Source: an uncultured Gammaproteobacteria bacterium (lineage in GTDB: Bacteria; Patescibacteriota; Patescibacteriia; JAHIZJ01). Taken from it: a DNA stretch of 64,000 nucleotides. The stretch covers positions 37,360 to 101,359 of the forward strand of contig CAZQLY010000003.1 in assembly GCA_964594455.1 (NCBI GenBank). The letters run 5' to 3'. Shown piece by piece: positions 9,769 to 45,252 of this stretch; the first letter of the stretch is position 1, and every line of letters begins with the position of its first letter. The translations under genes and the position numbers were made by a program. A model generated the notes under the pieces. It had not been told where the DNA came from, made no database searches, and saw nothing but the letters and a program-made list of their open reading frames with translations.

Positions 9769-10383
9769 CTAGCCTTCGGGGTAGCCCTGGAAGACGACCT
9801 GCGACTCGAGCAGCCGAGTCTCAAACGTCTCAGTGTCAACTTCGACGACGTACTCGACAATCCCGGCCAAGCCGAGACGGTGAGTGATGCTGGGATCCAG
9901 CACAGCCGTCTCGCTGCAGGGCGAATGGCTACTGACCAGGACATCGAGTCCGGTCTCGTCGTACTGGGAAGCCAGGATGCAGACCCACTTGAAAAGGCAC
10001 TCGCGGAAGCGAGCGGACATCTGCCGCGTCGGCGGATGGACAGCGAACCAGAGACCCATGGTCTCAGGAGTGCCGGCGGCCACGATAGCCTGGATGCGCT
10101 TGAGAGCTTCAATCATCGGAGCGTCCGGATTCTCAGCGTAGAGATAGCCGAACCCCGGATCCTTCCTGGTCGTGAGGCTCTTGAGGCCCAGGGCCTGCAG
10201 AGCAGTGCGGTTGGTCTGGAATGCCCGGTACATGTCCGAACAAAGACCGAGTACGAACTCAATACCAGCGAAATAGCGGCGTGAGGATTCAGCGACTTGC
10301 TTCTCGCCCCTGGGCGTCAACTCGTCACCATCCTTCTCGCCATGCCGCTGCACCTTGAAACGAACAACCATTTTCTTCCCCAT
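9769..10383 (-). CDS. histidine phosphatase superfamily (phosphoglycerate mutase-like) protein
   Basis: The N-terminus VVRFKVQRHGEKDGDELTPRGEKQ carries the RHG catalytic motif. The gene sits in a GC-rich island. Confidence 0.5.
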   Translation of the reverse strand: MGKKMVVRFKVQRHGEKDGDELTPRGEKQVAESSRRYFAGIEFVLGLCSDMYRAFQTNRTALQALGLKSLTTRKDPGFGYLYAENPDAPMIEALKRIQAIVAAGTPETMGLWFAVHPPTRQMSARFRECLFKWVCILASQYDETGLDVLVSSHSPCSETAVLDPSITHRLGLAGIVEYVVEVDTETFETRLLESQVVFQGYPEG

Positions 10384-10539: not shown

Positions 10540-11052
10540 TTATGAATCCGGTTTTTCTTCGCCCCAACTGCGCGACCCGGAGCCACCGATTAGGCCGATA
10601 TACCAGGTATCGCTGTTGAAACCCAACTGGAGATCAGCTTCGGGTAGCGGGATTCGGGGCAGGAAACTGGGTAGGGTGTTGTTTAGCACCCGGAAAAGGC
10701 TGTACTGTATCCCGAAATCCAGTTCCGTACCAGACTCGTTCATGAATCTGAGACCCAGCCCTCCAAATACACTGAGCGACTTCATGACTGGTACGTAGCC
10801 GTAGCCACCGATCAGACCCTCGGTTTCGTCTGCCCAGGATCCAACCGAGACAAAAGGCCCGATCTGAGCCCGTGAAACGTTGAGTAAGTAGTGCAGCTGA
10901 CCCATAAGCAGCATGGCATCACTACCCTCTTCGTTCTCGGTAATTCCGACGTAGGCCCTGGCACCAAAGTTCTCCGGCGCCTTGGACCAAACCGAAGACG
11001 GAACAGCCAGCCAGATTGCTAGCACCACACCAATAACAAGCATCCTTTTCAT
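10540..11052 (-). CDS. secreted beta-rich protein resembling an outer-membrane beta-barrel (OMP_b-brl/OmpW-like) domain
   Basis: A signal peptide (MKRMLVIGVVLAIWLAVPSSVWS) is followed by alternating hydrophobic and Gly/Tyr-rich beta-strand-like segments. The gene is GC-rich relative to its flanks. Confidence 0.35.
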   Translation of the reverse strand: MKRMLVIGVVLAIWLAVPSSVWSKAPENFGARAYVGITENEEGSDAMLLMGQLHYLLNVSRAQIGPFVSVGSWADETEGLIGGYGYVPVMKSLSVFGGLGLRFMNESGTELDFGIQYSLFRVLNNTLPSFLPRIPLPEADLQLGFNSDTWYIGLIGGSGSRSWGEEKPDS

Positions 11053-21785: not shown

Positions 21786-21839
21786 TGTTACAAAAAAACA
21801 GAAGCCTGAAACCTCTGTTTTTTTGTATACAGGTTTGTA

Positions 21840-22595
21840 TTATTTCTGATTTGGTTTTTTCTTGGCCAGGCCTTCCAGTGCTCGTAATACTTCCAGTGGC
21901 ACAGCGAAGACTACAGTGTTTGATTGATCAGAGGACAAATCATTTATTGATTGTAGAGTGCGGAGATGAAGTGCACCATCTGATTCACCCAACATCTTGG
22001 CAGCTAGGCTCATATTCTTAGCGGCTATTACCTCACCCTCTGCTTTAATAATGACGGCTCGTTTTTCTCTTTCGGCTTCTGCTTGTTTGGCAATAGTGCG
22101 TTTCATTTCCTCAGGCAGTTCTATGTGTTTTAATTCTACCGCTACGACTTTTATTCCCCAGGGATCAGTAGCAATGTCAACGAGCTTACGAATTTTTTTG
22201 GAAACTTCATCGCGCTGGGTTAGAAGTAGGTCAAGCTCGGTTTCACCCACTACATCACGCATAGTAGTCTGGGCTAATTGAGATACAGCATAAACATAAT
22301 TTTCAACTTCAATGATTGCGGTATTAGCTTCTACCACTTTAAAATAAAGCACCGCATTAACCTTGACAGATACGTTGTCTCGGGTAATTGCATCTTGATC
22401 TGGAACATCAATAGCTATAACCCGCATATCCACCTTAGTCATTGTTTGAAATACGGGTATAACTAATCGCCAACCCGGTTTGGCAGTGGAGGTGTATCTC
22501 CCCATAGTAAATTTAACCCCTCGCTGGTATTGGTTTATCTGCCTGATGGAAATTAGTAAAATAACTACAACGATAATAATTGGTGTCCAATACAT
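21840..22595 (-). CDS. SPFH/band-7 (stomatin/HflK/C-like) domain protein
   Basis: N-terminal TM helix followed by an SPFH core (..YQRGVKFTMGRY...VLYFKVVEANTAIIEVENYVYAVSQLAQTTMRDVVGE...) and an EA-rich coiled coil. Confidence 0.65.
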   Translation of the reverse strand: MYWTPIIIVVVILLISIRQINQYQRGVKFTMGRYTSTAKPGWRLVIPVFQTMTKVDMRVIAIDVPDQDAITRDNVSVKVNAVLYFKVVEANTAIIEVENYVYAVSQLAQTTMRDVVGETELDLLLTQRDEVSKKIRKLVDIATDPWGIKVVAVELKHIELPEEMKRTIAKQAEAEREKRAVIIKAEGEVIAAKNMSLAAKMLGESDGALHLRTLQSINDLSSDQSNTVVFAVPLEVLRALEGLAKKKPNQK

Positions 22596-22664
22596 GTTTT
22601 TTGGTGTTATTTATTAACTGGCTTAATTATAGCATTTCTTAAATAGATGAAACAAGAAACATCC

Positions 22665-22693
22665 TTGACAAAACCGTTGAAACATGATATTGT
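22665..22693 (+). promoter_or_regulatory. sigma70-type promoter (TTGACA-N17-TATTGT) with a ~135-nt structured leader
   Basis: TTGACAaaaccgttgaaacatgaTATTGT. The leader contains the palindrome GGGGAATATTTCCCC (22765-22779) and a duplicated TCAGGAGG ahead of the ATG at 22831. Confidence 0.45.
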
Positions 22694-22830
22694 CTCAGGT
22701 CACTCTGGCCAGTTTCTGGTTCAGTGACAGATCTTTGACATTCTTAGATAGATTCGAAACCCAATAGGGGAATATTTCCCCTGAGGCTAGTACAGTTATC
22801 AGGAGGCGAATTGCCTTCAGGAGGTGAAAA

Positions 22831-25044
22831 ATGAAGTTCATGGACAGCGTTTCGTCGATCGCCAATATGCGCGTGTCGGGTTTTGTGATTTTGACGGTGG
22901 TTTTTGGTTTGGCGCTTTCGCTTGCGTTCAAGACCATGAACTGGTTGCTGGTGCTTGTTGTTATGGCAGCGGTGACCTATGTCTTCTATCGGTACCGAGA
23001 GAGATTGCTCTTCCAGGTGACCGATCGGATGTTCAAGTACTACTACCTGGTGGGATTTTTGATCATGACAACCCTGTACATGCTACTTGTGTTCAGGATG
23101 ATCAGAGATCCAATTTCCAGCTGGCTGGCAGTGATCATCTACTTTCTTTCGTGGACGATCCTGCTGGTCTATGCTGGAAAAGCTCAGATTGGTGCTACCT
23201 TCATCAAAGAGCCTGGTGCGATGTTGATTCAACGAGGGGGCATGTTCCTCCGCATCGCCTGGGTGAAGAAGGGGCATCGGATGTTGACTAACCAAGCAGC
23301 TCAACGCTTAAACGCACTGGCGTTCCTTTTCAATCCCACGGTTGAGGATCATAAGAAACGGATCTTCGTGAAGTGGCTGTTGTTTCAACTCGAGGATGCC
23401 CTGGACGAAAAAGCCCACCTTATTCGGGGATGGGATGTGGTGACTACCTTTGGAGGTGATCCATTCGTTTCTGAGTCAGCGCGTGAGCGGACGGCGGAAG
23501 GTTGTATTACTCTGTCAACACCTGAAGATGTGTACAATATGATTCGAAGATCACCTCAAGAAGGTGAGAAAACGATTTCTCACCAACCACCGTACTCACG
23601 TCCTCGGTTCAGCCATATGGCCAAAAGGCCTAGCAGTGAAATAGATGAAATTCTGAGGGCTCTATCGGTCGTTTCGGGCAGTAGCCGGGCAGAGTTTCAA
23701 GTTCACAGCCAGCTGCTGACAAGGGACGAGAAGAGGGAGGGTCGTAAAATACCCAACCAGAATAAGTATGTGTTCAATCCTGAGTTCACAGTTGGCTACC
23801 GTGACCGCTTTGCCCAATATGACATCATGACTGAAACTGAAATCGCCCATGAGTCTGGATTGACGCCCGGAATCATCAAATGGTGCATGGCGGATGTGGC
23901 AGAACAGCAGAAGCCGCGCAAGGGCGTCTTCGGCGGTTTGCGCGTGATCGGATTCCCTTGGGATTCAGTTATGACACATCAGCTGGTAGTTGAAACCTGG
24001 TCTGAGGTAACGGATGTAACCGAGGGGGGCGCCGCTTACAAGGTGGAGAAGGTCCCTCGGGAATTCCAGAGGATTGGCCTGGGCCGTGAACAGATGAAGC
24101 TTTTCGTCAAACGAGCAGAAACTGCTGACGGCTATGCTGTTGATTTCTACGTAGTCATCTTCTTGCATTTGCGCAACGTGTATAAGGCGATGATTGATGT
24201 GGACGACTGGCATCAGTGGCTAGCCAATGTCATTGTTGCCAAGATCCGAGAGCTGACTCGTCGTCTGCCTATCCACGCCGCGATTGATGCCAAGGAGCAC
24301 GTTTCCGAGTGCATCAGACGCGGTGTTCACGGTGAAGAGTACACTCTGGTCCCGGAGCTCATCAGCCCGGTACCTGACGGATCCAGTGAGGACATCCAGA
24401 AAGAAGGGCGTCCGAAGTACCGCATACACGTCGTGCCCATCCGCGATCTCAGGAAACTGGAGCGTATGCTATATGCTGCGGTTGGAGATAACGATGGAGC
24501 TGAGAAGAAGGCCAATACCAAGGACCAAGACAGTATCAAGGATGTTGCTGTCGACGAGACTCTCCTGGAGAGCATTCTGTTCAAGGCCGGAATCGTGGTT
24601 GATGGGATGGGCGTCAAGGACGTTATTCCCTCAGACACCGAGGCTAAGCAGTTCATCGAGGCCTTGCCCAGCGCGATTCAGGAAGCGCAGATTCGCATCA
24701 GGCAGGGAATCGGTGAAGCTGGCAGAATCGAACGGGAAATCGCTGCGCTGGCTAGCAAGGGCGAGAATGTCGCTCAGATCTTCCAGCTGATTGAGACAAC
24801 CAAGAGTGTTCCATCTGGGAGCACGGTTGTTCTTGGTGGCGGAGGCGGATCGATCGACCAAGCCCTGTTGGCCCAGCTGTTGCGAGATCGGAGCAAGCCA
24901 ACCGGCAAAACCGGAGGATCGGGTGAAACCGATGCTCCGGAATCAGTAAGCGCAGATGCAAAAGGCTCCGGCGATATAGCCGGATCAGACCGTGAGAGCG
25001 GGAAACGTCCTGAACGTTCCCGTTCTACACGGAAACGATCTTAG
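22831..25044 (+). CDS. large membrane-anchored hypothetical protein (N-terminal TM helices, ~600-aa soluble region, Gly-rich and basic disordered C-terminus); possibly flotillin/SPFH-like
   Basis: 737-aa ORF in a GC-rich island with strong AGGAGG ribosome-binding sites. The C-terminal ..IRIRQGIGEAGRIEREIAALASKGENVAQIFQLIETTKSVPSGSTVVLGGGGGS.. resembles the end of bacterial flotillins; this is a weak impression only. Confidence 0.4.
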   Translation: MKFMDSVSSIANMRVSGFVILTVVFGLALSLAFKTMNWLLVLVVMAAVTYVFYRYRERLLFQVTDRMFKYYYLVGFLIMTTLYMLLVFRMIRDPISSWLAVIIYFLSWTILLVYAGKAQIGATFIKEPGAMLIQRGGMFLRIAWVKKGHRMLTNQAAQRLNALAFLFNPTVEDHKKRIFVKWLLFQLEDALDEKAHLIRGWDVVTTFGGDPFVSESARERTAEGCITLSTPEDVYNMIRRSPQEGEKTISHQPPYSRPRFSHMAKRPSSEIDEILRALSVVSGSSRAEFQVHSQLLTRDEKREGRKIPNQNKYVFNPEFTVGYRDRFAQYDIMTETEIAHESGLTPGIIKWCMADVAEQQKPRKGVFGGLRVIGFPWDSVMTHQLVVETWSEVTDVTEGGAAYKVEKVPREFQRIGLGREQMKLFVKRAETADGYAVDFYVVIFLHLRNVYKAMIDVDDWHQWLANVIVAKIRELTRRLPIHAAIDAKEHVSECIRRGVHGEEYTLVPELISPVPDGSSEDIQKEGRPKYRIHVVPIRDLRKLERMLYAAVGDNDGAEKKANTKDQDSIKDVAVDETLLESILFKAGIVVDGMGVKDVIPSDTEAKQFIEALPSAIQEAQIRIRQGIGEAGRIEREIAALASKGENVAQIFQLIETTKSVPSGSTVVLGGGGGSIDQALLAQLLRDRSKPTGKTGGSGETDAPESVSADAKGSGDIAGSDRESGKRPERSRSTRKRS

Positions 25045-25068
25045 GACGATCTCGCTCCTGAAGTTTGA

Positions 25069-25107
25069 GGCGGGACCCACGCGGCATTTGTCGTAACGGG
25101 TCCCGCC
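25069..25107 (+). promoter_or_regulatory. intergenic GC-rich hairpin (10-12 bp stem) with no T-run
   Basis: GGCGGGACCC-(19 nt)-GGGTCCCGCC lies between the two island genes and immediately before AAAGGAG-ATG. It may be a processing or attenuation structure. Confidence 0.35.
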
Positions 25108-25130
25108 CTCATCAACCAAAGGAGTGAATC

Positions 25131-26558
25131 ATGTTTGCGATAATCCCGGTTACTATTTTCTTCGCCCTTCTTCTGAATGGTGCGAAGGAGCTCGTCGCCA
25201 TGCGTACGGCCCAGCGGAAAAAGGAGGCTTATCAGTTCTCCTATGCGCGGGTATTCTGGTCGAAATTCTCAGCTTGGGCGCTAATCATCATTGGACTAGT
25301 GCTGTTAGCCAGACTATATCCTGTAGTTTGGCAAAACATCCAGGTACGGCAGCAGCCTTACTGGACTGAGTATGAGCAGATCTACCACAACCCCCCTGAT
25401 CTCACGAACATCTGTCCTTCCGGGCAACTGCCCAGCGATTGGGATGAAGCTCTCAAGGTAATCGAATCCCAGGGCACTTCAGAACAAGTCGCTTGGGGCC
25501 AGGCACTGGATACCAAGAAGGAGATGCTCAAAGCTCTCTATCCACACTTCCACACTGGATGGGCCAGATTCGTCGGCATGGCGATTAAGTTCCTGCCTTT
25601 GATATCATGGTTTGCCACCATCCTCTTGACTTCCTACCTATTCCGAGTGATTGGTAGAGGTAAGAAAGAGGCTATGGGAGGCATTCAGATCATCCTGCTG
25701 GTGTTTGTCTTCTTTGTCCTCTGCGGCAGTCGACTGGCAGATGCTTTGCCGGCCTGGCTGTCGATGTCGTACGGATTCTTGGCTAAGATGTATGGCTTCG
25801 AAACGCCGAAGATGCAGGCTTTCTTCGCCCTCATTGTCGCTATGGTGGCAATGGCGGTGCGGATCGGCTCTGGGTCTAGAGGATTGGCCGTGCTGACGTA
25901 TCTTGCGTTGGTTCTGGCCGGTGTAAACCTTGTAGGTTTCGTAGCTCCTTCCTTCATGGCCAAGAAACGTGGAGATGAGTGGGGTTCAACCTACAACAAT
26001 CCACTGACACTAGCAACTGTACAGGAAGAGAATGTGGTATACCAACCCCTGCGCGTCCAGGGCGCTACTCCGGGAACGCAGGTAAAGTCCTACCTCATCT
26101 CTTTTGACACCAGACAACCTGGGCCGCATCCAACTGGCATCAAGGTCCACCATCTCCAACGAGGCCAGTTCGAACGAGCGACAGAATTGGAGAAGTCATA
26201 CCAGTATCTCCGAACCAGAACGGGGAAGAAGTACTGGGCATCGGCTGCTGGCGACTCGTTAAACGGTCAGTCGCTGATGCCGCACCATTTCCGTCATATG
26301 GAATGGTTCCATACGTTGAGCGCTCCAGCCGGAGCAATCATAGTGCAGATCGGTTCTGGGAACTGGTTTGCTCCGTTTCAGAATGGTGACATGTTTACTG
26401 GCACTGGTGTTGATGGGGAAGTTTGGGTGGACATCAATGACACTCAGCGTCGTCCAGAGAAAGATGGCCTCCAGTACTACGTGGACAACGAAGGCATTGC
26501 CTATCTAAGACTCCGGGTATACGAACCACCCGGAAAAGCTCTTTTGGCCGGGTCATAG
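25131..26558 (+). CDS. polytopic membrane protein with a beta-rich C-terminal soluble domain (hypothetical)
   Basis: 475-aa ORF with about 6-8 TM helices and a ~190-aa C-terminal domain. GC-rich. Probably co-transcribed with the gene at 22831..25044. Confidence 0.4.
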   Translation: MFAIIPVTIFFALLLNGAKELVAMRTAQRKKEAYQFSYARVFWSKFSAWALIIIGLVLLARLYPVVWQNIQVRQQPYWTEYEQIYHNPPDLTNICPSGQLPSDWDEALKVIESQGTSEQVAWGQALDTKKEMLKALYPHFHTGWARFVGMAIKFLPLISWFATILLTSYLFRVIGRGKKEAMGGIQIILLVFVFFVLCGSRLADALPAWLSMSYGFLAKMYGFETPKMQAFFALIVAMVAMAVRIGSGSRGLAVLTYLALVLAGVNLVGFVAPSFMAKKRGDEWGSTYNNPLTLATVQEENVVYQPLRVQGATPGTQVKSYLISFDTRQPGPHPTGIKVHHLQRGQFERATELEKSYQYLRTRTGKKYWASAAGDSLNGQSLMPHHFRHMEWFHTLSAPAGAIIVQIGSGNWFAPFQNGDMFTGTGVDGEVWVDINDTQRRPEKDGLQYYVDNEGIAYLRLRVYEPPGKALLAGS

Positions 26559-26568
26559 TATCCGGTCC

Positions 26569-26606
26569 GGGGGCAGTTTGTGAAAACAGACCGCCCCCTT
26601 TTTTTA
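26569..26606 (+). terminator. rho-independent terminator (GGGGGC...GCCCCC stem followed by T7)
   Basis: cGGGGGCagtttgtgaaaacagaccGCCCCCtttttttattt, placed between convergent genes. Confidence 0.5.
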
Positions 26607-27119
26607 TTTAGATATAGTTGCCAAATAGAATAAAATAGGAATCAAACAAGCTTGAAGCGTCAAACCAATTCTCCAAGGTAGGTTTTTTTGTATTAGCCAA
26701 TGAATTTTGTGATGAAATTGATCGTGTTTTTTAAGCAAGTCGGCTAGTGGTTTTGCCTTGTTTAAGAATTTTAACCAATTATGAAGTACGGCGGCCATAT
26801 TACTAAGCTGATGATGTAGTTCAGAAAGAAAGTCTGGTAAAATAGCCCCAGTGGCGCCCGATATTACAACAATCATTTCTGATGAGGGTGCTATTTTTAG
26901 AAAAAGCAGTGTATAGCAAATAGCTAGAAACAGGTCAACGAATCCAATCACTATTAAGCGCTTGGGTTTATCCCGGAACCAATACCCAATTCCTTCATCT
27001 CCATGCGGGATGTAATCAAGAATGTAGTGAGAAACAAAAGATATCAAAAAAGCCGAGATTGGTTCTCGGGTGACTTGACTTATCAATATTCCGGTTGCGG
27101 CGTGGGCTGTCAGGAACAT
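26604..27119 (-). CDS. membrane-bound metal-dependent hydrolase-like protein (YdjM/DUF457-like)
   Basis: 171 aa. An N-terminal His (MFLTAHAATG..) and the ..HYILDYIPHGDEG.. motif sit within a multi-TM protein. Tandem paralog of the next gene. Confidence 0.35.
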   Translation of the reverse strand: MFLTAHAATGILISQVTREPISAFLISFVSHYILDYIPHGDEGIGYWFRDKPKRLIVIGFVDLFLAICYTLLFLKIAPSSEMIVVISGATGAILPDFLSELHHQLSNMAAVLHNWLKFLNKAKPLADLLKKHDQFHHKIHWLIQKNLPWRIGLTLQACLIPILFYLATISK

Positions 27120-27122
27120 TTA

Positions 27123-27659
27123 TCAAAGAGTAAATTCTGATATTAGAAATACCATAATAATTACAATTTGAATTGAAAACCCAGCTATGGGCGATATCCT
27201 ATAATCAAAAAAATTATCAACGAAGTTATGAAACTTGTCATGCAGGTAGTTATTACCTTTGATAAACGGGTGCAGCAGAATGGTTTTTCTCTGCAGCCAA
27301 TAAAGCGCTCTAAAGATAAGTTTCTGTTGATACTTTTGGTGAACGAATGGAAAAAAATTAGAAATTAGGTCGGGCAAGAGAGAACCAGCTAGTCCTGCTG
27401 AAACCAATGCTATTCTAGGCAAATCAGTCGTGGTATAAAGTACACTAATTAGAATAATAACGCACAAGAAGTCAATCGAGGCTAAAATGCTAGCGCGTTT
27501 TTTCTTTTCCGGATCCCATTCTTGGTAAAGGTTTTCATCACCATGGGGTATGAAGTCCATGATGAAATGGACAAAAATCGAAATAACAAAAACCCACAGA
27601 GGTGATTCTAGTCTCTGGCTAATTAGGACCCCCGCTGCAGCATGGGTGGTAAGAAACAT
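27123..27659 (-). CDS. membrane-bound metal-dependent hydrolase-like protein (YdjM/DUF457-like), paralog
   Basis: 178 aa. MFLTTHAAAG... and ..HFIMDFIPHGDEN.., the same architecture as 26604..27119. Confidence 0.35.
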   Translation of the reverse strand: MFLTTHAAAGVLISQRLESPLWVFVISIFVHFIMDFIPHGDENLYQEWDPEKKKRASILASIDFLCVIILISVLYTTTDLPRIALVSAGLAGSLLPDLISNFFPFVHQKYQQKLIFRALYWLQRKTILLHPFIKGNNYLHDKFHNFVDNFFDYRISPIAGFSIQIVIIMVFLISEFTL

Positions 27660-27686: not shown

Positions 27687-27763
27687 TGGTGACAGGGGTG
27701 GGAATCGAACCCACGACCTAGGGCTTATGAGTCCCTCGCTCTAACCAACTGAGCTACCCTGCC
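27687..27763 (-). tRNA. tRNA with CAT anticodon (elongator Met or lysidine-modified Ile2); CCA encoded
   Basis: Minus-strand cloverleaf GGCAGGG-TA-GCTC-AGTTGGTTA-GAGC...CTCATAA...GTGGG-TTCGATT-CCCAC-CCCTGTC-A-CCA. Position 1 pairs G1:C72, so it is not an initiator. Confidence 0.8.
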
Positions 27764-28097
27764 TTACATGGTTTCTTTTACTTTTTATTTTCAGAAAAAG
27801 ATCTTCATCAGGTCGTTTTAACAACCTTTTTCTAGTAAAGGCAATACCAGAAGCAGTTTTTAAATATTTTTCAAAACTCAACGCCGTATGTTTATCTTCG
27901 AAGACACAATAGAACTTAAGATGCCAATTCCGTGAGTTTGAAGTGTATCCGGTTGTAGATGTTGCATGCCTATATAATCGTCCTTGAAGATTTGTCGTAT
28001 ATCCTTTATAAAGTCTTTTTGTAACAGAATTCATCAGAACATATACTGTGTGTTTCATAACACTATACCATACTCCCCGCTGCATTTTTGTGGACAT
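27741..28097 (-). CDS. small GIY-YIG nuclease-domain protein (YhbQ/UPF0213-like)
   Basis: ..HTVYVLMNSVTKRLYKGYTTNLQGRLYRHA...WHLKFYCVFEDKHTALSFEKYLKTASG.. matches the GIY-YIG motifs. The true start is probably an internal Met (28085 or 28058). The 3' end overlaps the tRNA at 27687-27763 by ~23 nt. Confidence 0.5.
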   Translation of the reverse strand: MSTKMQRGVWYSVMKHTVYVLMNSVTKRLYKGYTTNLQGRLYRHATSTTGYTSNSRNWHLKFYCVFEDKHTALSFEKYLKTASGIAFTRKRLLKRPDEDLFLKIKSKRNHVRQGSSVG

Positions 28098-28117
28098 CCT
28101 TCGCTAGCGCGAAGGAT
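28096..28117 (-). promoter_or_regulatory. perfect 9-bp hairpin (ATCCTTCGC-TAGC-GCGAAGGAT) directly abutting the tRNA 3' end
   Basis: It has no T-run. The hairpin includes the GAAGGAT Shine-Dalgarno-like element and the first ATG of the GIY-YIG ORF, and may be a processing or translational-control structure. Confidence 0.4.
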
Positions 28118-28192
28118 GGTTGCGGGGCCCGGACTCGAACCGGGAACCTCAAGGTTATGAGCCTTGCGAGCTACCAATTGCTCCACCCCGCG
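28117..28192 (-). tRNA. initiator tRNA-fMet (CAT), CCA encoded
   Basis: Minus-strand cloverleaf CGCGGGG-TG-GAGC-AATTGGTA-GCTC-G-CAAGG-CTCATAA-CCTTG-AGGTT-CCCGG-TTCGAGT-CCGGG-CCCCGCA-A-CCA. The C1:A72 mismatch is typical of bacterial initiators. Confidence 0.8.
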
Positions 28193-28426
28193 ATGAGAAA
28201 ATACATTTTCACCGTAGTTTTGATAATAACCCATATTTGTATTTTAATCAAGTGTTTGACAGAAAAAGAATAATTGCTAAAATAAGCACGTTGATTTAAC
28301 TATCAGCGGCTCATTTTATTGTCTTGGTTTGAGGACAGCGGAAGTACCGTTGTGGACTAATCAGGCGCTTTCAGCCAATAAGTAATTCCTCAATAGGAAG
28401 AGGCTTATGGGTTGGAGGAGGAAATA

Positions 28427-29293
28427 ATGCCAAAACAGACAGAGGACAAGTGCAAGGACTGTTGGGAAAAAGAATGCTTTCCCAACATCTCATCGTCACG
28501 TAGGCGGTCAATTCTCGGTTTTATCTTAATCTTGTTTTTTGCAGCTGACTTTGCCGGGATTGCGTTCTTCTTACAACCAACACCCATTGCAGCCACGTGC
28601 CTGTATCTGGGCAGTGTTGCTCTGACGGGAGGGGCAATCTGTTGGTTTATCAAGGAAGGAATCGGACGAAGCAAATACTACTTTGTCCAAGGCGATCGTG
28701 AACACCTGCATCGCAAGAAACCGCAGATTATTGATCGTAACGGAAGCATAATAGGAGACGGTGTAATCCATCCCCGGTTATTCAAGGGGTATGTCCTGCA
28801 GTTGTATCATGGCGGCTGGTTTCGGCAGCGTCGTGTGTTGGTAGCGAGTGAAAGCGATAGAGAGTTTTCACTGCTGGCAAGCTGGAGGATCAACTGTTGG
28901 AAGGGTAACCACGATCTTTATCTCACCGACCAGCGTGGAGAAGTGCGGGGACCGTTCTCTCCTAAACATGCTCTAGAGATCGTAGCTAACCACTATTCGT
29001 TTAAATGTCTGGACAGGATTTCTGATCAGCGTTTAGCAGCTCTGCAGATCGCCCTCAGCTTCCTTTGGAAGATGCATGAATTTCTGGGAGAGGGTCGCAA
29101 GGGAACCGGTTGGGGAGATTCCAAGTACGCCCGGTTGATGAGGGATGCAATCGGGATGGTGCGAGAGTCTATCCGTAACCAGCTGCTCAAAACGGAAGGC
29201 GGTAGTGCCGTAGAAGATCTCCAAGCTACTTGGAGCCGTATGACAGCTGAGGAAATCATTCGGCACCTGACTCAGTCCACTCACGCAGCCTAG
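28427..29293 (+). CDS. hypothetical membrane protein (two N-terminal TM helices plus a soluble domain; possibly bPH/DUF304-like)
   Basis: The probable start is the ATG at 28427, preceded by GGAGGAGG. GC-rich. Inserted between the tRNA-fMet and tRNA-Leu genes. Confidence 0.4.
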   Translation: MPKQTEDKCKDCWEKECFPNISSSRRRSILGFILILFFAADFAGIAFFLQPTPIAATCLYLGSVALTGGAICWFIKEGIGRSKYYFVQGDREHLHRKKPQIIDRNGSIIGDGVIHPRLFKGYVLQLYHGGWFRQRRVLVASESDREFSLLASWRINCWKGNHDLYLTDQRGEVRGPFSPKHALEIVANHYSFKCLDRISDQRLAALQIALSFLWKMHEFLGEGRKGTGWGDSKYARLMRDAIGMVRESIRNQLLKTEGGSAVEDLQATWSRMTAEEIIRHLTQSTHAA

Positions 29294-29300
29294 TTCATGC

Positions 29301-29329
29301 GCGGTCGTTAGACAACGACCGCTTTTTTT
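29301..29329 (+). terminator. rho-independent terminator
   Basis: GCGGTCGTT-AGAC-AACGACCGC followed by TTTTTTT. Confidence 0.7.
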
Positions 29330-29330
29330 A

Positions 29331-29360
29331 ATTCAAAAAAGTCATGTTTAAATGACTTTT
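29331..29360 (-). terminator. rho-independent terminator for the tRNA-Leu transcript
   Basis: AAAAGTCAT-GTTTAA-ATGACTTTT, with a T-run on the minus strand. Confidence 0.6.
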
Positions 29361-29365
29361 GAATA

Positions 29366-29454
<89 letters not shown>

Positions 29455-44361: not shown

Positions 44362-44434
44362 GGCTGGATAGAACAGGTGGTAGCTCGCTGGGCTCATAAC
44401 CCAGAGGTCATGGGTTCGAATCCCGTTCCCGCCA
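44362..44434 (+). tRNA. tRNA with CAT anticodon (third CAT tRNA); CCA not encoded; one acceptor and one D-stem mismatch
   Basis: GGCTGGA-TA-GAAC-AGGTGGTA-GCTC-G-CTGGG-CTCATAA-CCCAG-AGGTC-ATGGG-TTCGAAT-CCCGT-TCCCGCC-A. Mismatches at 4:69 (T:C) and 12:23 (A:C) mean it could be a functional Met/Ile2 tRNA or a decaying copy. Confidence 0.5.
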
Positions 44435-44598
44435 CAACCTTTCCTGCGCGGTTACCCCCACGCAGGGCCAAGGGCGGTGAACAGTTTCATTGGAAACTAG
44501 TTCTCCGCCCTCTTTTTATGCCTTGACAAAAAAATGTTTTTTTGTATAAAGTTACTTGTTGTATAAACGGTTGTTGTCCTAGCAAAAGGAGGTGTGGC

Positions 44599-45252
44599 GT
44601 GTCAGCTAGAAGATTGGTAAAAGGCAGGCTTCTCTTTGTTCCTCCTCGGGAGCAGGTCAGATTGCTCCGCCAGTGGAACAGCGAGTATGATCTGAGTATT
44701 CCGGAAGAATGGTTTGCTAGCCTGGGTAAACCTCCCCGGCACCCCGACCGCCCACTCTGTACGGTAGTTCTGGATGTGGGCTTGAGGACCATGTGGGAGA
44801 CCTTGATTAGGGCTTGGCAGATCGCTGCGGCTCAGCAAGACTATGCCTGGCGGGACTCGGACCTGATTCGGATGTGTACGGTGCGCATGGGTCCCAAGAT
44901 AAATCACCTGCCGGGTTTGCGCTGGCGAATCGTCAACTTAGGTGCCAATTGGTTTCCTGACGATTCCGGAAACTATTATGCTCCGAACAGTCTCCAATGC
45001 CCGCAAGATGGTCCAGACGCTGCGTTACTATGGGCAGCAGCCTATTTCCCGAAGTGGATCCAGCGCATGGACGGAAGGGAAGTTCCCTTTGTCTGGATAC
45101 CTGGATATCGCGTACAGGAAACCGGTGATGATTCGTCATGGTGTTACATCCCACGACTCTATTTCTATCAGGCCGATGACGGTATCTGCTTGGATGCTGA
45201 TCATCAAGAGAATAGTGGTCCCAAGTGGGCGGTGCCGGAGCTCATTGACTAA
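44599..45252 (+). CDS. hypothetical protein (GC-rich, Trp-rich)
   Basis: The probable start is the GTG at 44599, preceded by AAAGGAGGTG. A weak hairpin plus T-run at ~45278-45310 follows. Confidence 0.4.
   Translation: MSARRLVKGRLLFVPPREQVRLLRQWNSEYDLSIPEEWFASLGKPPRHPDRPLCTVVLDVGLRTMWETLIRAWQIAAAQQDYAWRDSDLIRMCTVRMGPKINHLPGLRWRIVNLGANWFPDDSGNYYAPNSLQCPQDGPDAALLWAAAYFPKWIQRMDGREVPFVWIPGYRVQETGDDSSWCYIPRLYFYQADDGICLDADHQENSGPKWAVPELID

Follow-up and report, generated by a model that had tools for sequence, protein, structure and literature searches.

A GC-rich operon of Patescibacteria encodes a divergent SPFH-type protein and a polytopic membrane protein

Bacteria of the candidate phyla radiation (CPR, Patescibacteria) live as obligate episymbionts, and the biology of their envelope is for the most part uncharted. 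To our knowledge, SPFH scaffolds are universal and their clients are mostly unknown. In the 64-kb stretch of contig CAZQLY010000003.1 analysed here (the window; all positions are counted within it), a GC-rich segment carries two adjacent open reading frames (ORFs) for large membrane proteins, ORF-A and ORF-B, which a first-pass annotation had described as an island, perhaps acquired, encoding a possible flotillin/NfeD-like pair. What are these two proteins, and how did such a segment come to lie among AT-rich genes? We consider it probable that the locus is a vertically inherited, lineage-restricted bicistronic operon of Patescibacteria, in which an SPFH scaffold is encoded together with a membrane partner.

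The two genes form one transcription unit, made up of a promoter, a leader of about 130 nt, ORF-A, ORF-B and a terminator:

22663..22693, plus strand: sigma-70-type promoter, with an extended -35 element CCTTGACAAAA (22663-22673), a 17-nt spacer and a TG-extended -10 element
22699..22830, plus strand: 5' leader of about 130 nt, with three hairpins followed by a Shine-Dalgarno (SD) site
22831-25044, plus strand: ORF-A, 737 aa, a divergent SPFH protein
25048..25130, plus strand: intercistronic stem-loop, with the ORF-B SD paired in the base of the stem
25131-26558, plus strand: ORF-B, 475 aa, with six predicted transmembrane (TM) helices and no family assignment
26569..26605, plus strand: intrinsic terminator, a GGGGGC...GCCCCC stem and a T7 run, which ends the bicistronic unit

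The ORF coordinates given in the first-pass annotation (251 aa for the upstream stomatin-type gene, 737 and 475 aa for the pair) were exact. The pair was found in five lineages: the window, L001 (GCA_016294925.1), L083/L084 (GCA_028714495.1), L085/L088 and L086 (GCA_030699685.1).

By sequence and predicted fold, ORF-A belongs to the SPFH superfamily. Pfam Band_7 (PF01145) matches residues 384-626 at 25.3 bits (E = 1.8e-5, cut-off 23.6), and the homologs score 29.3, 24.8, 21.4 and 17.3 bits. A profile-profile alignment (hhalign) of the ORF-A family (alignment A4) with short Band_7 proteins (A9) reached a probability of 99.75% (E = 2e-27, 233 columns) and covers ORF-A residues 365-672, from GGLRVIGFPW to STVVLGGGG. 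An AlphaFold2 (AF2) model built from five sequences has a mean predicted local distance difference test score (pLDDT) of 47, with values of 55-76 in the core. A Foldseek search with this low-confidence model retrieved SPFH-type structures only (stomatin, prohibitin, HflK/C, flotillin, QmcA and vault), consistent with the SPFH alpha/beta fold, and one homolog, P0005, is labelled 'SPFH domain-containing protein' at NCBI. The proposal that the 737-aa product is SPFH-related is thus borne out, as is that of N-terminal TM helices, of which four are predicted. The protein is laid out as follows:

aa 15-115: four TM helices, from TM prediction
aa ~124-149: first SPFH strand(s), placed by eye against the short relatives
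aa ~150-364: insertion 1, variable, of about 215 aa
aa 365-505: SPFH core
aa 506-577: insertion 2, of about 70 aa
aa 578-672: last strand, coiled-coil helix and 'STVVLGGGG' strand
after aa 672: basic low-complexity tail

When ORF-A is compared with the stomatin encoded in the window, the proteins align at residues 426-632 and the second insertion is exposed at 506-577. Helices at 603-641 and 645-658 in the AF2 model lie past the last strand, so that ORF-A combines an N-terminal anchor with a C-terminal coiled-coil/oligomerisation helix, as expected of an SPFH protein. A crude positive-inside count, in which a spurious fifth TM call was discarded in two of the ORF-A homologs, predicts a cytoplasmic SPFH domain in all five.

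Compared with SPFH proteins of the stomatin/HflK-HflC type (HflK/C 7VHQ, PH1511 8GN9, QmcA 8Z5G), ORF-A has four TM helices instead of one TM helix or a hairpin, an added ~215-aa insertion after the first strand and one of ~70 aa before the last. It is more than twice the usual length, shares about 10-17% identity with them and barely passes the Pfam threshold. Unlike the bacterial flotillins (FloT/YuaG and FloA; SPFH2/SPFH5), which are anchored by a hairpin, ORF-A has a four-helix anchor and no Flot/EA-repeat domain that Pfam detects. The flotillin identity, suggested by a flotillin-like tail in the first-pass annotation, is therefore not supported, HflK/C and stomatin being structurally closer.

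A word-indexed search of 5.8 billion proteins returned one ORF-A homolog (P0002), and when 1.84 billion cluster representatives were searched exhaustively with an HMMER profile, four family members were returned (P0002, P0005, P0006 and P0007), followed by weak matches to shorter, unmistakable Band_7 proteins. With four clusters among these representatives, the ORF-A family is very rare. A pattern scan of genome contigs for ORF-A found none, a weak negative given that only two narrow peptide patterns were used.

Six TM helices are predicted in ORF-B, with an acidic loop of 75 aa separating TM2 from TM3. The conserved C-terminal domain that follows is ~185 aa long and carries the motifs FDTxxPGPHP, PAGAxIxRIGDGNWFAPF, VDINDT and DG..DNxG; no domain library scanned recognises ORF-B. 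BLASTP found one relative, in L001 (36%, E = 1e-89). More diverged homologs follow ORF-A in L083, L085, L086 and L088 (alignments A5 and A6), and FDTxxPGPHP, RIGDGNWFAPF, VDINDT and DG..DNxG are common to the homologs. The AF2 model has a mean pLDDT of 51, with 20-30 in the C-domain, too low to bear out the beta-rich fold that the first-pass annotation proposed there. A crude positive-inside count places the C-terminus outside in four of the five homologs, with small margins. An idea formed by eye, that the C-domain has a LecA/PA-IL-like lectin fold, was rejected (hhalign 3.6%, 16 columns).

The pairing with a polytopic membrane protein put forward in the first-pass annotation holds, since ORF-B is co-transcribed 3' of ORF-A as ybbJ is after qmcA. 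Its NfeD-like identity does not: on sequence and profile evidence we rejected NfeD homology. None of five ORF-B homologs matches Pfam NfeD (PF01957) at E up to 1, whereas the positive control, E. coli YbbJ, matches at 3.5e-12 with the same tool. Likewise, when the ORF-B profile is aligned with YbbJ in hhalign the probability is 0.2%, and no NfeD chain is among the PDB sequence matches to ORF-B at E up to 10. Profile and structure searches thus found SPFH similarity for ORF-A, and sequence and profile searches no NfeD similarity for ORF-B.

Operons of SPFH and NfeD genes (overview in Hinderhofer et al. 2009, PMC2636767) include qmcA-ybbJ in E. coli (Tan et al. 2024 Structure 32:1603, 8Z5G), yuaF-floT and yqeZ-floA in B. 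subtilis, and PH1510-PH1511. As in these operons, an SPFH gene is co-transcribed with the gene of a partner that has TM helices N-terminal to a soluble domain, and both genes evolve together; the order, SPFH then partner, is that of qmcA-ybbJ. Unlike the NfeD partners, ORF-B has no detectable NfeD domain, 475 aa and six TM helices, and its C-domain is about three times as large as the NfeD OB (oligonucleotide/oligosaccharide-binding) fold and probably lies on the opposite side of the membrane. Architecture and operon position after the SPFH gene are all that ORF-B has in common with NfeD. We infer, by analogy, that ORF-B is the functional counterpart of an NfeD partner, though not a detectable homolog of NfeD.

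The two genes may also be linked at the level of translation. Between them, an 83-nt stem-loop pairs the ORF-B SD (AAGGAG, 25119-25124) with CUCGCUCCU, which begins 4 nt past the ORF-A stop codon. An SD buried in a hairpin after an upstream stop is the classical arrangement for translational coupling, and ORF-B is probably coupled to ORF-A in this way. Ribosomes ending ORF-A would open the hairpin, so that the ratio of ORF-B to scaffold would stay fixed. The stem-loop has a folding energy (dG) of -47.1 and a z-score (z) of -6.5 in the window, and dG -49.1 and z -5.9 in L001. The intercistronic region is 77% identical between the two, with inner-stem bases that are altered yet still paired, in contrast to the ORF-B protein, which is merely 36-38% identical. 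The terminator after ORF-B (dG -21.8, z -3.5) has matching terminators at the same place in L001 and L083.

At the other end of the unit, the consensus promoter reported in the first-pass annotation was found as TTGACA (22665-22670), a 17-nt spacer and TATTGT (22688-22693) with TG upstream. The 11-nt extended -35 element is invariant 5' of the ORF-A homologs in L001, L083, L084, L085 and L088. A GGTCA box that follows the -10 and probably coincides with the transcript start is kept in four of those loci and reads AGTCA in L001. This conservation holds though the ORF-A proteins are mostly 28-36% identical between lineages. The transcript would start near 22699, and its leader is predicted to fold as follows:

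22699-22728, plus strand: leader hairpin 1, 5'-terminal, with a GUCACU...AGUGAC stem
22767-22781, plus strand: leader hairpin 2, GGGGAAUAUUUCCCC
22802-22818, plus strand: leader hairpin 3, the pre-SD hairpin GGAGGC/GCCUUC
22819-22826, plus strand: ORF-A SD AGGAGGTG, just 3' of the pre-SD hairpin

Two leader elements had been singled out before. The duplicated one, TCAGGAGG, does occur twice (22799-22806 and 22817-22824), and its first copy is an arm of the pre-SD hairpin. The 'perfect palindrome' GGGGAATATTTCCCC (22767-22781) is present but is strictly a 6-nt inverted repeat around a 3-nt spacer, giving 8 pairs in RNA. We rejected the idea that it is an operator bound by a protein, because it is part of the transcribed leader and L083 and L085 do not keep its sequence; an RNA hairpin is the simpler reading.

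The leader fold has dG -41 and z -2.05 in the window, single-sequence z ranges from -0.4 to -2.5 across the leaders, and the layout of three hairpins (5'-terminal, central and pre-SD) is also present in L001, L083 and L085. MAFFT/RNAalifold on five leaders gave no consensus structure (-0.4 kcal/mol), and Rfam has no match in the leader or the intergenic region. With no consensus structure and z near -2, we therefore describe a shared three-hairpin layout and no proven RNA element. By analogy with known 5' stabilisers, the leader may stabilise the mRNA.

Composition sets the whole unit apart. GC content is 50-58% over 22.75-26.58 kb compared to ~40% in the flanks. Counted per 1 kb it is 0.50-0.55 at 23-26 kb and ~0.39-0.42 around, and per 200 nt it steps sharply at ~22750 and ~26580, the ends of the transcription unit. 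GC at third codon positions (GC3) is 0.593 in ORF-A and 0.590 in ORF-B compared to 0.34-0.42 in core genes, and GC at the first and second positions (GC1, GC2) and Gly/Ala/Arg/Pro content are raised too. The 1-kb, 200-nt and GC3 counts bear out the GC-rich segment, which differs from the window average (0.52 for the pair, 0.42 for the window). In all five lineages the pair lies above its flanks, by 4-13 points: 0.52 vs ~0.40 in the window, 0.53 vs 0.40 in L001, 0.52-0.54 vs 0.45-0.50 in L083, 0.58-0.61 vs 0.46-0.53 in L085/L088 and 0.56-0.58 vs 0.47-0.54 in L086.

The same division is seen in the initiation signals. An SD core precedes 6 of 6 GC3-rich genes in the window compared to 1 of 38 AT-type genes (Fisher p = 1e-6), in agreement with the first-pass observation that AGGAGG sites distinguish the segment from the core genes. 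This contrast was also found in L001, L083 and L088, and SD sites are present on the pair in all related loci while the core genes lack them. About half of Parcubacteria lack an anti-SD motif (Tsurumaki et al. 2022, PMC9297842); an Rfam scan of the window found tRNAs only and no rRNA. The SD/GC3 split suggests that a single CPR genome houses two modes of initiation or two gene pools. This GC/SD anomaly is the most unusual aspect of the locus, and recombination-linked GC-biased conversion or recurrent allelic import are candidates for the persistent GC excess.

One gene order is found in all related loci, as far as the contigs reach: SecDF, sigma, DUF8128, TrwB, a small ORF, two DsbA, Lgt, ORF-A, ORF-B, one or two YdjM-like genes on the other strand, (GIY-YIG, tRNAs) and ParAB. 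In the window, the TrwB-like ATPase, DUF8128, two DsbA-like genes, Lgt and ParAB are neighbours typical of CPR. ORF-A is always followed by an ORF-B homolog (L001, L083/84, L085/88 and L086). Core proteins are 72-84% identical in all pairs of loci; ORF-A is 58% identical between the window and L001 and otherwise 28-36%, and ORF-B 29-38%, with identity ranks that parallel those of the core genes. The shared synteny and the parallel ranks argue for vertical inheritance, and synteny across lineages disfavours a recent transfer.

Around the pair, neither an ORF for an integrase or transposase nor any meaningful flanking repeat is present, and no relatives were found among 2.9 M viral contigs and 50,697 phage records. 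As neither matches PHROG or PADLOC, a phage, plasmid-like or defence origin was rejected. The marks of a recent island (mobility genes, direct repeats, patchy presence) are thus lacking, the pair occupying the same syntenic site in five lineages. The island of the first-pass annotation is compositionally distinct, as stated, but its recent insertion is not supported: it is an old, syntenic, compositionally anomalous operon.

Between L085 and L088, the ratio of non-synonymous to synonymous change (dN/dS) is 0.24 for both ORF-A and ORF-B compared to 0.07-0.13 for the neighbours. Accordingly, the pair is under purifying selection that is weaker than on its neighbours. The same comparison reveals a mosaic: the synonymous difference (pS) is 0.6-0.8 in the ORF-A insertion compared to 0.1-0.2 elsewhere, and 0.3-0.6 in the ORF-B C-domain compared to 0.07-0.2 in the TM part. 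In these fastest-changing parts, synonymous and non-synonymous sites diverge jointly and block by block. The mosaic suggests imported segments, and the block divergence suggests that alleles are exchanged at a surface of interaction, such as one with a host cell or a phage.

The closest sequence relatives outside the ORF-A family, linked to it by the hhalign match above, are short-form SPFH proteins of 342-504 aa (P0008-P0013; loci L090 5001-7500, L091 561-2113 and L093 2000-3990), encoded on CPR-like contigs with arrays of type IV secretion system (T4SS) pilins. They are of the same SPFH sub-type as ORF-A (EGTAK..., GGL+xxGxP and AET motifs). Unlike ORF-A, they lack both insertions and have one or two N-terminal TM helices. 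Each SPFH gene is followed after 0-12 nt by a partner gene for TM helices and a small C-terminal soluble domain, and both genes carry SDs. As in the window, composition is often off that of the flanks; the L090 pair lies 14 GC points below them (0.375 vs 0.51-0.54), in the opposite direction. The partners match neither NfeD nor ORF-B, so that homology to ORF-B was tried and not found. Taken together, the short-form pairs and the window pair make an SPFH gene with an abutting, fast-diverging membrane partner look like a recurrent CPR theme.

The operon is bordered on both sides by genes on the opposite strand:

21840-22595, minus strand: stomatin-type SPFH gene, 251 aa; Pfam Band_7 E = 5e-36; divergent from ORF-A
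26604..27659, minus strand: tandem pair of paralogs, small membrane proteins of 171 and 178 aa with weak similarity to YdjM

The stomatin, to which the first-pass annotation had tied the pair, is 79% identical in L001 and lies between Lgt and ORF-A only in these two loci, being absent there from L083, L084 and L088. Its adjacency is therefore incidental, and a functional link is not supported. It has ~560 close relatives in GTDB species genomes (80 kept, nearly all labelled Patescibacteria/CPR), which occupy unrelated contexts, and no NfeD gene was found beside CPR stomatins among 20 neighbouring ORFs tested. The two most similar stomatins are in L003 and L005 (84% and 77%). The L003 contig ends 464 nt from the gene, and in L005 a tRNA-Leu(caa) abuts it and the contig ends 247 nt on; these ends on the ORF-A side are suggestive of an assembly break at a variable region or of an empty site. 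The Lgt and stomatin genes converge on a 14-nt inverted repeat without mismatches, TACAAAAAAACAGA/TCTGTTTTTTTGTA (21786-21827), which is probably a bidirectional terminator.

On the ORF-B side, the tandem paralogs (~175 aa, 26604-27659) have a HxxxDxxPHGDE motif and YdjM/DUF457-like matches (E 0.007-0.02). YdjM-like genes adjoin ORF-B in every related locus and have native GC; the values for the window are 0.38, with GC3 of 0.34-0.37. Beyond them (27687-28192, minus strand), a GIY-YIG ORF (27741-28097, E 7e-14) lies between two tRNA-Met genes; as called, it overlaps the first tRNA by ~20 nt, and its true end or start may differ.

Four further GC-rich genes were noted in the window. At 28117-29452, a GC-rich orphan with two TM helices, p293 (28412/28427-29293, GC3 0.53, SD GGAGGAGG, promoter TTGACA-16-TAAAAT at 28256), is flanked by tRNA-Met and tRNA-Leu(caa); L001 has a homolog with 47% identity, whereas L083 and L088 have no called gene at the equivalent place. 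At 44362-45252, an orphan of 217 aa with a GTG start at 44599 (GC3 0.57, no Pfam match) has the identical extended -35 element CCTTGACAAAA (44521-44531) and the SD AAGGAGGTG, and stands directly 3' of a tRNA-Met (44362-44435) and a terminator hairpin. The other two are SD-led genes on the minus strand: 9769-10383 (GC3 0.74, weak His_Phos_1 match, promoter CCCTTGACAA..TAATAT) and 10540-11052 (GC3 0.61, signal-peptide-like N-terminus).

How then is the locus best explained? One alternative is a mobile two-gene cassette, moron-like, which would have been acquired from a GC-richer, SD-using pool, or be repeatedly re-imported from it, at a hot spot near tRNA genes. Such a cassette would fit the shift at all three codon positions, the sharp boundaries at the unit ends, the unit's own promoter and terminator and the SDs that the core genes lack. 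There are tRNA-Met and tRNA-Leu genes within 1-3 kb, other GC-rich, SD-led orphans adjoin tRNAs, and short-form pairs deviate from their flanks in either direction. The mosaic pS between L085 and L088 points the same way, as does the L005 stomatin without an adjoining pair, on a contig that ends 247 nt beyond its tRNA-Leu. We nevertheless regard this account as unlikely: the pair has the same site and orientation in five lineages with 28-36% ORF-A identity, integrase, transposase and flanking direct repeats are missing, the viral and phage collections hold no relatives, no donor-like homolog was found outside the clade among 1.84 billion representatives, and the window and L001 are closest for ORF-A as they are for core genes.

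It is very unlikely, in our view, that ORF-B is a true NfeD, extremely diverged and enlarged, with an SPFH-binding OB fold in its C-domain, which would make the locus a genuine SPFH-NfeD operon. Partners of the NfeD2 type, YuaF among them, can hardly be recognised from their sequence (21% identity) yet share the fold (Hinderhofer et al. 2009, PMC2636767), and both the gene order of qmcA-ybbJ and the succession of TM helices and C-terminal soluble domain are present here. Against this stand the failed Pfam, hhalign and PDB searches, the length of the C-domain (~185 aa vs 57 positions in the Pfam NfeD model) and, weakly, a predicted topology that sets it across the membrane from the SPFH domain. 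Alternatively, the genes could be mere neighbours with unrelated functions, and the GC excess the result of GC-biased conversion or expression-linked selection. All known loci are in one syntenic clade, so that adjacency does not count as independent evidence; the YdjM-like genes are just as much 'conserved neighbours', and a nearby GC-rich orphan (p293/p281) is absent from L083 and L088. However, the intercistronic hairpin would couple ORF-B initiation to ORF-A termination in two lineages, the genes have a common promoter and terminator with no internal terminator, their dN/dS and composition are the same, and distant short-form SPFH relatives in other contexts also have an abutting membrane-protein gene. 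Unrelated functions are thus highly improbable.

We accordingly favour the inherited operon of scaffold and partner. By analogy with HflK/C, stomatin, prohibitin and QmcA-YbbJ, ORF-A would oligomerise on the cytoplasmic face, as a ring or cage that is attached to the membrane and delimits a microdomain, and ORF-B would be its dedicated client or partner there, with its six TM helices in the membrane and its conserved C-terminal domain probably facing outward.

Several points weigh against this model. The Band_7 score of ORF-A is just 1.7 bits over the threshold, and two homologs are below it. Oligomerisation and contact between ORF-A and ORF-B are purely conjectural because the AF2 models reach pLDDT 47 and 51. 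An NfeD-style contact would be impossible if, as predicted, the membrane separates the SPFH domain from the C-domain of ORF-B, though the topology margins of ORF-B are small. The SD-sequestering hairpin is present only in the window and L001 and was not found in L083, L086 and L088. As all five loci come from a single syntenic clade, the adjacency could be inherited gene order and not functional coupling. Finally, vertical inheritance leaves the persistent GC excess unexplained.

A broader account would address this excess, although we think it quite unlikely as a whole. The clade would have two translation and composition regimes, an AT-rich core without SDs and a small, fast-evolving envelope set that is GC-rich, SD-dependent and led by consensus promoters, kept GC-rich in the long term by recurrent recombination with a separate pool or by GC-biased conversion. 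ORF-A and ORF-B would be the prototype of this set, an SPFH cage with a non-NfeD partner whose outward domain mediates contact of the episymbiont with its host or with phages.

The locus extends the known theme of an SPFH protein plus partner and is not new in kind. The architecture of ORF-A, with a polytopic anchor and a split SPFH domain, is not described in the 12-subfamily scheme of prokaryotic SPFH proteins by Hinderhofer et al. (PMC2636767), and ORF-B would add a dedicated partner with a new conserved domain. Across five lineages the pair stays GC-rich and SD-led in an SD-poor, AT-rich genome, and this persistent anomaly bears on how composition and translation-initiation signals are kept up gene by gene.

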